32,135 nt of DNA from an uncultured bacterium (GTDB taxonomy: Bacteria; SAR324; NAC60-12), in contig CAXGMD010000039.1 of assembly GCA_964010765.1 (NCBI GenBank), positions 1 through 32,135 of the forward strand, in the 5' to 3' direction. This document shows positions 3,001-12,000 of the stretch, in pieces (positions within the stretch are counted from its first letter, which is position 1; each line of letters starts with the position of its first letter). The position numbers are program-made.

Positions 3001-6000
3001 CGGGCCCCACCCGAGACCTGGATGTTTATCTTCTTGACTTCAATTCATACCAAACTCAACTACCCGAAGAACAGCAAGCTGATCTTGAAGCTTTTCGGGA
3101 ACTTCTGCTGACAGAAAATGCCAAAGAGCAAAAACTTTTAGCCAAGGATCTTCAATCCAAGCGTTTTCAAAAATTTCGCTCGACCTGGGAGCAATTTTTA
3201 ACAGATGAGACTCCTTCTACAACTAATGGAGGAGCAGCAGAAGTTCGCAAAACCGCATCAAAAAGACTCCTTAGAAGTTATCATCGTTGCTTAGCTGAGG
3301 GGAAAGCAATTGACCAAGATTCTCCTGATGAAGCTCTCCATGACTTGAGGAAGAGTTGTAAGAAACTTAGGTATTTACTGGAGTTTTTTGAAAGCCTTTG
3401 GTCCACAAAAGAATTCCAAGGGATTCTCAAACCTCTCAAAGCCCTTCAAGAAGATCTGGGTCAATTCAATGATTGCTCGGTTCAACAGGAATCCCTAAAA
3501 AATTTTGGCGATATGCTTGCCAAGCAACAACCTGTTCCAGCCCAGACTTTGGTGGCGATGGGAATGCTTGTCAGTGCCCTAAACCAACGACAGGCCGAGG
3601 CACGTCAGCGTTTTCAAGGCAGTTTTAGTGGATTTGCTTCGACTCGCACTCAGAATCGTTTCAATCTTCTTTTTCAACAGCCAACCGTTGCTGAGGAGCT
3701 GAACTGATGCAAATCTTAGCTTCTTATAACATCAAAGGTGGGGTTGGAAAAACCGCTACTTCTGTAAATTTGGCTTTTCAAGGGGCACACGAAGGAGCCA
3801 GAACACTAATTTGGGACCTTGATCCGCAGGGAGCAGCGACTTTCTATTTCAGAGTTCGACCAAAAATCAAAGGGGGTTCCAGGGCTTTGCTGAAAGGTCG
3901 TCATGATCTTGCCGATCTGATCAAGGCTACCGACCACGACAACCTGGATCTTCTACCTTCCGATTTTTCATACCGCACGATGGATCTCCTGCTTGATGAC
4001 ACTAAGAAACCAAATGAGCGACTCAAGTTGCTGCTAAGTCCTCTAGCTGAAGAATATGACTATGTTTTTCTTGATTGCCCACCAGGACTGACTTTGCTAT
4101 CAGAAAGTATATTTGAAGCTGCTAATGTGCTTGTGGTCCCAGTCATACCGACCTCTCTATCACTTAGAACGCTTAAGCAATTGGTGGAATTTCGTCGCAA
4201 GAAGCAATTGCGAAATTTCAAGATGCTCGTATTCTTCTCAATGGCAGATCGACGCAAGCAATTGCATCGAGACCTAATGCAAATGATGCCTCGCAAATAT
4301 CCGAATTTTCTGAAGACAAACATCCCATATTCAACTGAAATTGAGCGGATGGGAATTGAGCGAGCCCCAGTAAGCTGCTTTGCAGAAAATAGCAAATCAG
4401 CACAGGCCTATCAGGAACTCTGGCAAGAAGTAAAAGCCCACCTCCCGGCCTGGTAATTCAACTTTTCAATCCATTGATTAAATGCCTGAATCTCCCGTGT
4501 CTGCCCGAAAGACACCTCGTCTTCTTTCGGCATTCCGACGTGCAGAAGCAATGTCCCATGATCTTTCACAGCTACCAGGCAAAGGTCCATCGTATTTTGA
4601 CGATGCGAAATTAGCTGGATTACTAAGCAAAGAGAGTATTGAGGAACAAATCCAATGGCTTCGTCGACTTGATGTAGACAGTTACATCCAAAGGGTTGTA
4701 AATCCGTCTGAAAACCAAAAGCGTCTCAGTTCAGCTGAAGTCATTCAGCAGCTTGGAGGTAGTCTCATTCAAGAAGAGATCGAAGGACCCCTCTATCTGG
4801 CCGAAGTCGAATTTCAGATCGGTGCTCTCAAGAGAAGAATTGGGTTTGTTGCCCAAGACCATAGGGTTCAACATGGAACTTGGGACCCGAAACATCATCG
4901 AAGAGCAGCGGACAAGTTGGGGTTCTTTGCTATCCATGGCATGCCGGTAGTGACTTTTATTGACACCCCTGGAGCCGTTGCTACCGCAGAAGCCAACCTT
5001 GACAATCAATCTCACAGTATCTCTTTTTTGATTGCCGAAATGGCAAATCTACAGTTACCAACTGTTGGGATTGTATTTGGGGCTGGATATAGTGGCGGAG
5101 CAATTCCGCTCGCTACCACAAATGTGTTGCTTGCCACCAAAGATGGAGTATTCAACACGATCCATCCCAAAGGACTGAGCAACATTGCTCGTAAGTACAA
5201 CTTATCCTGGCAGGAGTGTGCGAAATTTATGGGAGTTTCTTCCTATGAACTGTACTCCAGTGGATATTTTGATGGGATTATTGATTTCTCGTTAGACCAA
5301 CCTGGAAAAATTTCAAATCTACGGGAAGCAATCCTCAGTGGAATTGAAATAACAGAGCAAAACGCTCGACTCTTCCTCAAAGAAAACTCCTTTCTTTTCG
5401 ACCACTACAAAGAAAACATTGGGCACTATCTCAATCCGAGTGAACTCCAAATCGTCATAAATCGGAGAACTCACAAACCTCCAACAGGAACCCTAAACGT
5501 TTTTGGGTCAGCCTATCGCTTCATGCGTGGGCTTAAGATTCGTCAAAAAATCCAAAGCGAATCCCTGAAGAATTACTCCAGACTCAGCAGTAAAACTGCC
5601 AAGACCCCAATTGGTACTTTGACGGAAAGGATTGAGCAGGAGCGGCAAGAAAAATTCAAGAAGTGGCTTCAGGCTCCCATTGAACTTCGCTACCAAGAGG
5701 AGTTGAACAAACGCTACCAAAGATTCCTGGAAACAAAAGCAGAGCGAGATGTCGAACGGACAAAACTCTTCGCCTTTTTTGTGGGGGATCCCAAGGACAA
5801 CTTTGAGAAGGCACTGGAAGAGTTGACTCTGGAGGTGTTGATCTATCTTTATAACTTCTGGAAGGACAGCACCCGGGAGAACATGATTCAACTTCATGAT
5901 TTTCTTCAGGAAGCGACCCTCTCCGAGATCCATGAAAATCCCTCATTATTAGACGTTCTACTTGTCCCTGAAGTGAACCAAAGTTTGCAGCAAAACTTCC

Positions 6001-9000: not shown

Positions 9001-12000
9001 TGTTTGTGATGGAGTCAATCACCCCAAATTAAGAAAAATAATTGCTCGAGAGGAGATAGGAAAGGTCAGACTAGAGAGATAATTATTATGGAGATAGAAC
9101 CTCATTTTCAGATGAGGTTCTTATTTCAAGATTATTTTTTCAGAACCTCAACCATCTTCTCGCCAATATCGGCAGGGGTGGGTACGACATGAATACCAGC
9201 ATCTTGCAGTGCAGCCATTTTTTCGGCAGCAGTACCTTTACCACCAGAAATAATGGCACCAGCATGGCCCATCCTTCGCCCAGGAGGAGCGGTTTGCCCT
9301 GCGATGAAGCTGACAATTGGCTTGGTCACATATTCTTTGACGAAAGCGGCTGCCTGTTCTTCAGCGTCTCCACCAATCTCGCCAATCATCACAATCGCTT
9401 CAGTTCCAGGGTCATCCTGAAACATCCGCAGACAGTCAATAAAATTGGTCCCGTTTACGGGATCTCCCCCAATTCCGATACAAGTGCTCTGACCTAGGCC
9501 TACTCCACTGAGTTGACCTACAGCCTCGTATGTCAAAGTTCCGGAACGTGAGACTACACCAATTTTACCAGGCTGATGAATGCCTCCAGGCATGATGCCG
9601 ATTTTACATTCTCCCGGAGTGATGATCCCAGGACAGTTTGGCCCAATCAATCTGACTCCCTGCCGTTTTACATAATTTACCGCTCTCACCATATCTTGGA
9701 CAGGCACACCTTCGGTAATCGCCACAATGAGAGGGATTTTGACTGCAGCTGCTTCAATAATAGCGTCTGCGGCAAACGGAGGTGGAACGAAAATCATGGT
9801 TGCATTCGCCCCAGTAGCCTCCACTGCCTGTTTCACAGTGTTGAAAATTGGAACCCCTTCGAAATCTTGCCCACCCTTGCCGGGGGTCACTCCACTGACA
9901 ATATTGGTTCCATAATCCCTACAACCACGGGTATGAAGTTGTCCTTGGGATCCAGTGATTCCTTGAACCAAGACTCGCGTTTCGCTGTTGACGAGGACTG
10001 TCATACTTTCCTTTCAATACTCATTTGAGGGGTGATCAGGCAACAGCGGCAACTGCTTTTTCAGCAGCATCTCTTAAACCATCTGCCATTTGGAGGCGAC
10101 TACCAAGACCAGAATCATTGACGATTTGATGTGCTTCTGCTGCATTAGTTCCTTCCAAACGGACCACAACCGGCACCTTTAGGTCAACATTCTTTATCGC
10201 GGCAACAACACCCGCCGCAACCATATCACACCTCACAATCCCACCAAAAATGTTGATCAAGATGCACTTTACATGTGGATCGCTGGAAATCAACCGAAAC
10301 GCCAATTCAACTCTTTCCTGGGTACTCCCCCCCCCAACATCAAGAAAATTGGCTGGTTCACCACCACAAGCCTTAATGATATCCATTGTCCCCATGGCAA
10401 GACCAGCACCATTGACCATACACCCAATCGAGCCGTCCAATCGAATGTAATTGAGGTCATTTTCTGAAGCTTCTGTTTCAGCGGGATCCTCTTCGTCAAG
10501 ATCTCTCAGCTCAAGCGTATCCTTGTGTCGAAACAAAGCATTGTCATCGATTGTGATCTTCGAATCCAAGGCAATGACCCGGCCATCACCAGTGAGCACC
10601 AAAGGATTGATCTCAACCAAGGAGCAGTCTTCATTCACAAAGGCCTCATAAAGCCCTTGGAACAGAACTGCTGCGGGCCTAATCAATTTTGGATTGATCT
10701 TGTCAATCTCTAAACCATACGCCAACTCGGTAGCTTGGTAGGGCCTCATTCCAATAGTTGGATCGATACCAACTTTAAGAATTTTTTCAGGGGTGTTCGC
10801 CGCAACCTGCTCAATGTCCATCCCCCCTTCTGTGGAAGCCAGCATCACCACTTGCTGAGAACCCCGATCAACAAGCAATGAGACATAAAGTTCTTTCTTG
10901 ATGTCCATTCCTTCTTCGACAAGGACTCTTTTAACTTGCTGTCCCTTGGGCCCAGTCTGGTGAGTAACCAGTTGCATCCCAAGAATCTGCTCTGCATTAG
11001 TACGCACAGCTTCCAAGCCTTTTGAAACCTTAACACCACCACCTTTTCCACGTCCACCTGCATGAATTTGCGCCTTCACCACACAGATCTCAGTTCCCAG
11101 TTCTTCTGAAGCACTCACAACTTCATCCAGTGTGAATGCAACTTTTCCACGGGGTATGGTTACGCCGTATTTGGCTAAAATTTGTTTCGCCTGATACTCG
11201 TGTATTTTCATCAGTCCTCTTAGAATGGAATAACGACTGTTGATATTCCCAATTATTCAAGGCTAGGCAAGCAAGAGTTAGCTATCGTTGAATTCAATTT
11301 CAATTTAGCATGCTCTTCACAGCATCTCTTTCTTCTTCCAACTCTTTGCGAGTGATATCTAGCTTAGCTTGGGCGAAATCATTCAATGCAACGCCCTGCA
11401 CAATTTCATAGCTTTCTCCATTGCTACGCAGTGGGTAGCTGAAGAGCAAGCCTTCTGGAATTCCGTAACTTCCATCGCTGGGAACCGCTGCGCTGAACCA
11501 ATCTCCTGCTGGGGTGGGCTTTTCTAAACGCATGATTGTATCGAGAGCAGCGTTTGCTGCGGATGCTGCCGAAGAAGCCCCTCGAGCTTTGATGATCGCT
11601 GCGCCACGTTGTTGAACCACACTGATGAATTCACCTTTCAGCCATTCATGATCTGTAATCACCTCAGTAGCCGGTTGGCCTTGAATCAGTGCATTGTAGA
11701 AATCAGGATACTGGGTCGCACTATGATTTCCCCAAATAGCAACATTGCTGACCTCACGAGTTAAAACTCCAGCCTTTTGGGCCAGCTGACTTTTGGCTCG
11801 ATTTTCATCCAATGCGGTCATAGCAAACCAGCGATCTGCGCCGATTTTTGGGGCGTTGTTCATGGCGATTAATGCATTGGTATTACAGGGATTCCCTACC
11901 GTAATGATACGTACATTTTCACCTGCATTATCGTTGATTGCTTTACCTTGACCAACAAAGATCTTCCCATTGATTTCCAGGAGATCTTTCCGCTCCATTC

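Follow-up and report, generated by a model that had tools for sequence, protein, structure and literature searches.

Which enzyme supplies malonyl-CoA in a SAR324 bacterium with no recognizable accA, accB, accC or accD gene, and does its single-chain carboxylase represent a new type of acetyl-CoA carboxylase (ACC)? These questions are raised by a stretch of 32,135 nucleotides from an uncultured bacterium, referred to here as the window (contig CAXGMD010000039.1, assembly GCA_964010765.1). A survey of the whole genome had read one protein of this window as the housekeeping ACC and as a third, independently fused ACC architecture. The ORF list and the translation agree with the survey on a single ORF at this position, encoding 1,516 amino acids plus a stop codon from an ATG start, in which an AccA-like carboxyltransferase (CT) part is followed by a family-specific region of ~370 residues, an AccD-like CT part, biotin carboxylase (BC) and BCCP (Table 1). 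Judging from sequence, we estimate a probability of about 0.9 that this ORF encodes the SAR324 orthologue of AccS (AccADCB), a housekeeping ACC providing malonyl-CoA in place of AccABCD. The gene is a sound annotation of a known, structurally solved enzyme type, and its architecture is not new.

Table 1. Positions in the window of the accS-like gene, the parts of its predicted product and the downstream hairpin.
Feature	Residues	Position	Strand	Evidence
accS-like gene, predicted single-chain acetyl-CoA carboxylase		4482..9032	+	ORF; aligns with PDB 9kkm_A 'AccADCB'
N-terminal region	1-117	4482..4832	+	Unmatched in Pfam and NCBIfam; conserved among AccS proteins
AccA-like CT alpha half	118-309	4833..5408	+	PF03255, NF041504, PDB 2f9i_A
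Family-specific region	~310-682	5409..6527	+	PDB match only to 9kkm_A
AccD-like CT beta half	683-930	6528..7271	+	TIGR00515, PDB 2f9i_B; without zinc ribbon
Biotin carboxylase (ATP-grasp)	936-1385	7287..8636	+	NF006367; three Pfam BC domains
BCCP domain	1417-1516	8730..9029	+	TIGR00531 at 1417-1471; PF00364 at 1424-1469
Codon of predicted biotin attachment site, E-S-M-K-V motif	Lys1463	8868..8870	+	MKV at 1462-1464
Terminator-like hairpin with T-rich tail, in the gap where accS and sucD converge		9091..9127	.	Folding energy

A repeat Pfam search of the 1,516-aa protein returned the same domain coordinates as the survey: ACCA at residues 128-268, the C-terminal half of Carboxyl_trans at 118-213, Biotin_carb_N at 936-1047, CPSase_L_D2 at 1053-1259, Biotin_carb_C at 1271-1383 and Biotin_lipoyl at 1424-1469. 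The alpha half matches PF03255 with 85.1 bits, NF041504 (AccA_sub) at residues 126-287 and the alpha subunit 2f9i_A at residues 132-309 (E 2.2e-14), and it contains the glycine motif YSGGAIPLA (203-211). The presence of a beta-like half downstream of the insert, as proposed in the survey, is backed by matches to TIGR00515 accD (residues 683-876, E 7.6e-12; model positions 71-264 of 285) and to the ACC carboxyltransferase beta subunit 2f9i_B (residues 683-873, E 4.9e-15). This half carries the motif GGAQASF (820-826), and a motif search revealed no CxxC anywhere in the protein. The BC domain covers model positions 2-444 of 451 in NF006367 (489.7 bits), includes the motifs GGGGKG (1099-1104) and EMNTRLQVEH (1225-1234), and is joined to BCCP by a linker of ~31 residues, with no BT domain by sequence. 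The E-S-M-K-V sequence around Lys1463 is what we take to be the biotinyl-lysine motif, and this lysine is predicted to be biotinylated.

An alignment of 36 homologues with 44-84% identity showed at least 90% conservation of the E, M and K columns of the E-x-M-K motif and, in the insert as well as in the two CT halves, numerous invariant columns. The N-terminal region, in which the alignment with 9kkm begins at residue 17, also has invariant columns (E22, G46, D66, Y68, P75, R81, G102 and E108). Two observations count against the AccS reading: the Biotin_lipoyl match spans only model positions 3-46 of 73, and the NCBIfam equivalog scores of the protein all fall under their cut-offs. Such scores are expected of a fused, diverged form, but they provide no positive test either.

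The survey had described residues 274-679 as an insert without any Pfam match. An unmatched core between the CT halves is indeed present; its limits, however, are shifted to ~310-682, because the similarity to AccA (2f9i_A) extends to residue 309. When residues 274-679 were compared with the PDB, the only match was to residues 280-672 of 9kkm_A (235 bits, E 1.1e-68), and the next had an E value of 0.51. The same residues gave 92 matches among 1.84 billion cluster representatives and no usable match in a protein Atlas search. Among full-length matches with a single matched stretch, the insert lies at ~270-690 of proteins of ~1,470-1,530 aa.

The PDB entries 9KKM and 9W4A are named 'Acetyl-CoA carboxylase multifunctional enzyme AccADCB' (1,517 aa). 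Residues 17-1512 of the window protein align with residues 19-1514 of 9kkm_A (1,515 bits), insert included. The window protein has both the layout of AccS/AccADCB and homology to it from end to end. After 9kkm, the best PDB matches of residues 1-935 were 2f9i_B and 2f9i_A (E values as given above), whereas PCC-beta-type chains matched more weakly (1e-6 or worse). To judge solely from its name and length, which are identical to those of a Shewanella oneidensis protein, 9KKM probably represents that protein. A primary publication for 9KKM/9W4A was not found in literature searches; the map is in use in a cryo-EM methods preprint. Two other proteins of 1,517 aa (P0008 and P0071) were considered as the PDB chain and rejected on inspection by eye. 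The two chains in each entry suggest that AccS may be a homodimer.

The S. oneidensis protein is SO_0840, which, according to the excerpts of PMC4793157, has been annotated since the genome as an 'acetyl-CoA carboxylase multifunctional enzyme' of 1,517 aa, was named AccS in 2016 and replaces the missing AccABCD. Excerpts of a 2024 paper report a biotinylated band of ~170 kDa for AccS and a growth defect at low AccS that either accS or the E. coli genes accA+accD+accBC could rescue (PMC11602165). The name of the PDB entry and this complementation by E. coli ACC lead us to predict acetyl-CoA as the substrate of the SAR324 enzyme. With a solved full-length homologue and AccS genetics in S. oneidensis, the functional reading no longer depends on the absence of other ACC genes alone. 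The survey's view of a single-chain housekeeping ACC replacing AccABCD is thus supported, but its claim of an undescribed third architecture is not.

That claim starts from the arrangement CT-alpha-insert-CT-beta-BC-BCCP, which does reverse the order found in eukaryotic ACC and in the single-chain long-chain acyl-CoA carboxylase (LCC). The NCBI name of the SAR324 members is only 'ATP-grasp domain-containing protein', and the 9 papers found to contain both 'SAR324' and 'acetyl-CoA carboxylase' mention each term only 1-3 times. However, the identical architecture is in the PDB (9KKM, 9W4A) under an ACC name, and Shewanella AccS has been in print since 2016, including the 2024 paper, whose excerpts remark on a domain order unlike that of eukaryotic ACC, and a 2025 paper (PMC4793157, PMC11602165, PMC12362589). 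The PDB alignment and these papers refute a previously undescribed architecture, to which we assign practically no weight. The survey had also suggested a new one-gene malonyl-CoA part for engineering; the SAR324 gene offers nothing here that is not provided by AccS, a solved enzyme that the excerpted part of the 2025 paper cites in an engineering context (PMC12362589).

Whole-genome profile searches were repeated and, as in the survey, found no separate accA, accD, accC or accB, although the bin searched is 92.4% complete, which counts against the AccS reading. PF03255 matched the window ORF (86.8 bits) and a 586-aa frame on contig C88 (23.3 bits), and PF00289 the window ORF and a 920-aa frame on contig C46, reproducing the earlier values. 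TIGR00515 accD gave nothing above its cut-off in the genome, and none of the 12 matches of PF00364 lies in an AccB-like frame of ~150 aa. The genome also encodes BirA.

These searches point to a second possible acyl-CoA carboxylase, composed of a PCC-beta-like CT of 584 aa (C88) and a BC-BCCP protein of 917 aa (C46). The CT scores 323 bits against PF01039, and its best PDB matches are PCC beta subunits. PCC-type enzymes carboxylate acetyl-CoA in archaea and actinobacteria. This pair could make the housekeeping malonyl-CoA, with the window protein carboxylating propionyl-CoA or a similar substrate: it gives the genome the full complement of BC, BCCP and CT a second time, its CT also matches PDB 7w5u ('Acetyl-CoA carboxylase complex, beta-chain', 260 bits), and the substrate of the window protein is only predicted. 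We nevertheless consider this improbable. The CT halves of the window protein are of the AccA/AccD type rather than the PCC-beta type, the closest solved protein bears the name of an acetyl-CoA carboxylase, and E. coli ACC genes rescue low AccS in S. oneidensis, as described in the excerpts of PMC11602165. The pair is encoded by genes that lie apart, and its BC shows strong divergence (47.7 bits to Biotin_carb_N). Moreover, none of 81 genomes (58 + 23) has both the fused type and a canonical AccA. A promiscuous acetyl/propionyl-CoA carboxylase that serves lipid synthesis less than it does carbon assimilation or anaplerosis is less probable still. It would fit the position of accS, which faces a cluster of TCA-type genes (sucD, sucC, mdh, icd) in convergent orientation, and the failure to find a canonical stand-alone FabD in the genome. 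But this synteny, like that of the window neighbours in general, is conserved in only 3-4 near-identical genomes of 59 loci, the malonyl consumers fabG-acpP-fabF and a Pfa-like synthase (KS-AT-ACP-ACP) are encoded, and no other ACC-type enzyme was found in the genome.

No canonical stand-alone FabD having been found, the use of malonyl-CoA downstream is only partly explained, which also counts against the AccS reading. A speculative and rather doubtful extension of the AccS reading is that entry into lipid synthesis in this SAR324 family was rebuilt from fused proteins, with AccS as sole ACC, an acyltransferase (AT) domain carrying out malonyl transfer to ACP in place of FabD, and the AccS-specific region as a scaffold or regulatory domain of independent origin. 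The AT domain would be that of the Pfa-like synthase in this genome and a divergent 455-aa AT, which is found in other genera; the ~370-aa region would parallel the central domain of eukaryotic ACC.

A comparison of the 81 genomes gave the same phyletic pattern as reported earlier for the SAR324 lineages. The fused type occurs in 55 of the 58 genomes of the window's own order (ACCA match in a frame of at least 1,453 aa in 48, in shorter frames in 7, none in 3) and canonical full-length AccA in none, whereas 17 of 23 genomes from other orders of the class have a canonical AccA of 313-341 aa. All five AccS-bearing genomes reached via loci (two cultured Oceanospirillaceae, one Verrucomicrobia MAG and two already among the 81) have their best ACCA match in a long frame and no canonical AccA. 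Overall, the AccS family has matches in at least 742 species-level genomes, among them members of SAR324, Verrucomicrobia, Lentisphaerales and Oceanospirillaceae, and in 1,215 protein clusters, and is far broader than the 'small group of bacteria' mentioned in the excerpts of PMC11602165. The finding matters chiefly for annotation: the gene goes by the label 'ATP-grasp domain-containing protein' in SAR324 and many other uncultured lineages, which pathway reconstructions based on accABCD would wrongly score as lacking ACC.

The neighbourhood of accS is uninformative. Upstream on the same strand are a ParA-like ATPase, 25 nt away, and a CHAD-domain protein; no divergent LysR-type AccR is found beside SAR324 accS. 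The hairpin downstream has a minimum free energy of -18.8 kcal/mol (z -4.98; 0 of 200 shuffles equally stable) and was not listed by a promoter/terminator consensus scan, whose sites were no more frequent than in shuffles and which gave nothing in the 25-nt gap ahead of the accS start. Metatranscriptome contigs from 4 runs (4 studies), matched at ≥95% identity, reach 27-30 of 30 bins, and four bridge the junction of the ParA-like gene and accS; they were given no weight, because contigs from RNA libraries do not prove transcription or co-transcription.

In the proposed mechanism, the BC domain would use ATP and bicarbonate to carboxylate biotin on Lys1463, and the C-terminal BCCP would swing to a CT site built by the AccA-like and AccD-like halves, where the carboxyl group would be transferred to acetyl-CoA. 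The region between these halves may act as a family-specific scaffold, standing in for the C-terminus of AccA and the zinc-ribbon region at the N-terminus of AccD.

Each part of the SAR324 protein has as its best non-AccS match the corresponding subunit family of the heteromeric E. coli-type ACC, with which it presumably shares its chemistry. In contrast to the heteromeric enzyme, it is one chain in the order A-D-C-B, it contains the ~370-aa A-D region, which has no counterpart there, and it is missing the AccD zinc ribbon (accD model positions 1-70 unmatched, no CxxC). Eukaryotic ACC and the single-chain LCC (PDB 4rcn) likewise combine BC, BCCP and CT in a single polypeptide, but with the order BC-BCCP-...-CT. 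The order in AccS is reversed (CT-...-BC-BCCP), as the survey had noted and as the excerpts of PMC11602165 state with respect to eukaryotic ACC. Their Carboxyl_trans parts run beta-then-alpha, whereas alpha precedes beta in AccS, and, judged by sequence, SAR324 AccS lacks both a BT and a central domain. The closest known system is AccS of S. oneidensis, which belongs to a phylum other than SAR324. There, accS is accompanied by the divergent LysR-type AccR, which characterizes Shewanella and some gammaproteobacteria and not the AccS enzyme family, in place of the ParA-like ATPase upstream in SAR324, and the excerpts of PMC4793157 mention an extra stand-alone AccB, none of which was found in the SAR324 genome. 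In both genomes AccABCD is missing (for S. oneidensis, according to the same excerpts), and the two proteins share their length (1,516 and 1,517 aa), their domain order and, taking 9KKM as the presumed S. oneidensis entry, an alignment from end to end that includes the insert.

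The accS gene (window 4482-9032, plus strand) is a single open reading frame that begins with ATG and spans 1,516 codons. Pfam placed the domains of its product at the same coordinates as the survey had, and the Pfam, NCBIfam and PDB matches establish the order carboxyltransferase (CT)-alpha, intervening region, CT-beta, biotin carboxylase (BC) and biotin carrier domain (BCCP). All NCBIfam matches (AccA_sub, accD, accC and BCCP) scored below their equivalog cut-offs. In a PDB search with the N-terminal 935 residues, residues 132-309 matched the AccA-type subunit 2f9i_A (E 2.2e-14) and residues 683-873 the AccD-type subunit 2f9i_B (E 4.9e-15), with chains of the propionyl-CoA carboxylase (PCC)-beta type reaching 1e-6 or weaker. 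Based on these matches, both CT halves descend from the AccA/AccD type. An unmatched stretch between the CT halves does exist, but the limits 274-679 assigned to it in the survey are slightly too wide, and we place it at about 310-682.

Features of the accS product, its neighbours and related genes of the assembly (residues of the product unless a window, contig (C) or extracted locus (L) is named)
Feature	Position	Source or remark
ACCA	128-268	Pfam, 85.1 bits
Carboxyl_trans, C-terminal half	118-213	Pfam
Biotin_carb_N	936-1047	Pfam
CPSase_L_D2	1053-1259	Pfam
Biotin_carb_C	1271-1383	Pfam
Biotin_lipoyl	1424-1469	Pfam
AccA_sub	126-287	NCBIfam
accD TIGR00515	683-876	NCBIfam, E 7.6e-12
accC	936-1385	NCBIfam, nearly full-length, 489.7 bits
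BCCP	1417-1471	NCBIfam
YSGGAIPLA	203-211	
GGAQASF	820-826	
GGGGKG	1099-1104	
EMNTRLQVEH	1225-1234	
M-K-V motif	1462-1464	
CHAD-domain protein (535 aa), then ParA/MinD-like ATPase (249 aa)	window 2100-4456	(+)
sucD, sucC, mdh, icd (TCA-type run)	window 9132-13563	(-), convergent with accS
PCC-beta-like carboxyltransferase, 584 aa	C88, L009 5326-7080	(-)
Highly diverged 917-aa protein: BC, ~240 unmatched residues, BCCP	C46, L008 5205-7958	(-)
KS-AT-ACP-ACP protein, then 761-aa KR protein and KS/CLF-like protein	C2, L069 5610-9716 and neighbours	(-)

The accD model is covered only from position 71 on and no CxxC occurs in the whole 1,516-aa product, which shows that the AccD zinc ribbon is missing. 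The motifs in the table have counterparts in canonical enzymes, Lys1463 presumably being the biotin site. By homology, the protein would follow ordinary biotin-dependent carboxylase chemistry: the BC domain would load a carboxyl group onto biotin at the predicted Lys1463, and the BCCP, on a linker of ~31 residues and without a BT domain, would deliver carboxybiotin to a CT site formed jointly by the alpha-like and beta-like halves for final transfer to acetyl-CoA. Region 310-682 contains many invariant columns (36 sequences, 44-84% identity) and may act as a scaffold or regulator.

The assembly (3.86 Mb, 266 contigs, 92.4% complete), in which the window is contig C39, bears out what the survey had stated about its carboxylase genes. 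PF03255 matched only the accS frame (86.8 bits) and a 586-aa frame on C88 (23.3 bits), PF01039 the C88 frame (323.7 bits) and accS, and PF00289 accS and a 920-aa frame on C46. At this completeness, TIGR00515 gave nothing above cut-off, and none of the 12 Biotin_lipoyl matches was an AccB-like frame of ~150 aa. BirA is encoded. A second possible acyl-CoA carboxylase is represented by two unlinked genes, on C46 and C88, the latter flanked by lptF/G-like and gcvT-gcvH genes. Beside these genes lie two plus-strand frames that no Pfam family matches at E <= 1e-4, one of 1,279 aa (L008 8719-12555) and one of at least 990 aa that leaves the contig (L009 8378-11347).

Across 81 genomes of the phylum searched with PF03255, the 58 from the window's order comprised 48 with a fused-type match in a frame of at least 1,453 aa, seven with fused-type matches in shorter frames (297-1,166 aa), likely due to contig ends or frameshifts, and three without a match (G021, G017, G052); none had a full-length AccA. 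The 23 genomes from other orders of the class included 17 with a full-length AccA (313-341 aa) and none with the fused type at any frame length. The remaining six (G058, G059, G068, G076, G078, G079; 5-8 Mb, another order) had neither form, only weak PCC-beta-like hits, and their acetyl-CoA carboxylase may be of yet another type. All five AccS-bearing genomes reached through the loci (G038 and G041 of the 81, and three new ones) had their best PF03255 match in a long frame and no canonical AccA. Thus, the fused and canonical forms are mutually exclusive across all genomes examined, as housekeeping replacement predicts.

The neighbours of accS are uninformative on function, both upstream and downstream genes being common only to near-identical genomes. 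The CHAD/ParA-like pair, in which the ATPase start overlaps the CHAD stop at 3707, ends 25 nt upstream of accS and accompanies it in no genomes but the closest ones (L010-L013). The gap between accS and sucD contains a stable hairpin (-18.8 kcal/mol, z -4.98). Elsewhere, fabG-acpP-fabF are adjacent on C14 (L074 5880-8273), preceded by an MraY-like gene, not fabD. No canonical stand-alone FabD was found in the 92.4% complete assembly, where the only Acyl_transf_1 domain lies inside the 1,368-aa KS-AT-ACP-ACP protein of an apparent Pfa-like synthase cluster. In the 27 genomes of the order that are at least 90% complete, FabD scored above cut-off in 7 of 7 from the sister family but in only 1 of 20 from the window's own; closed genome G038 has a divergent 455-aa AT protein instead.

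Residues 1-930 retrieved 1,215 protein clusters at E <= 1e-3 (8,000 candidates scored); among the matches listed, nearly all were 1,500-1,550 aa, and the named ones came from SAR324, Lambdaproteobacteria, Verrucomicrobia, Lentisphaerae, Planctomycetes and Acidobacteria. The insert alone found 92 representatives among 1.84 billion, at ~270-690 in full-length proteins matching in one stretch; the short matches look like fragments. With each species represented by one genome, scanning confirmed at least 742 relatives. Represented among the 59 retained loci are SAR324 (single-cell and metagenome genomes), Verrucomicrobia, Lentisphaerales and Oceanospirillaceae, the last with cultured members among them (Thalassolituus maritimus and Oceaniserpentilla strains). 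Three of the SAR324 genomes are 96-98% identical to the window, one being SAR324 cluster bacterium JCVI-SC AAA005. In a midpoint-rooted FastTree of 51 full-length sequences (local support only; nine loci with frames below 1,300 aa left out), a fully supported branch parts 30 SAR324-type rows from 21 of Oceanospirillaceae, Verrucomicrobia and Lentisphaerales. Gammaproteobacterial rows, mostly Oceanospirillaceae (L037, L040, L041, L044, L047, L049-L053, L055, L057-L060, L062, L066, L068), have open frames of 1,628-1,739 aa, which exceed the SAR324-type full-length frames (1,512-1,576 aa; one partial row, 1,331 aa) by ~100 residues or more. The additional residues fall in the N-terminal part that contains the CT, where matches measure ~3,030 nt as against ~2,750 nt.

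The survey's reading of the protein as a single-chain housekeeping acetyl-CoA carboxylase is well supported by this replacement pattern and by homology to AccADCB/AccS, but the fused architecture it had proposed as new has been described and named before, and its structure has been solved. The single overwhelming PDB match is 9kkm_A (also 9w4a; 1,517 aa, 1,515 bits), 'Acetyl-CoA carboxylase multifunctional enzyme AccADCB', aligned at 19-1514 with residues 17-1512. Searched alone, the insert (274-679) matched 9kkm_A 280-672 (235 bits, E 1.1e-68) and, in the PDB, nothing else below E 0.5. Each of the two entries holds two chains (four in all), which suggests a homodimer. Passages in published papers describe Shewanella oneidensis AccS (SO_0840) as a 1517-aa 'acetyl-CoA carboxylase multifunctional enzyme' (2016, PMC4793157), mention its biotinylated band at ~170 kDa (PMC11602165) and, with engineering in view, point to natural single-chain enzymes in Shewanella and further gammaproteobacteria (2025, PMC12362589). 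AccS and the 9KKM chain share an identical name and length (1,517 aa), from which we infer that the structure is that of the S. oneidensis protein. Judged by sequence, the SAR324 product is a new member of the AccS family, so far annotated only generically.
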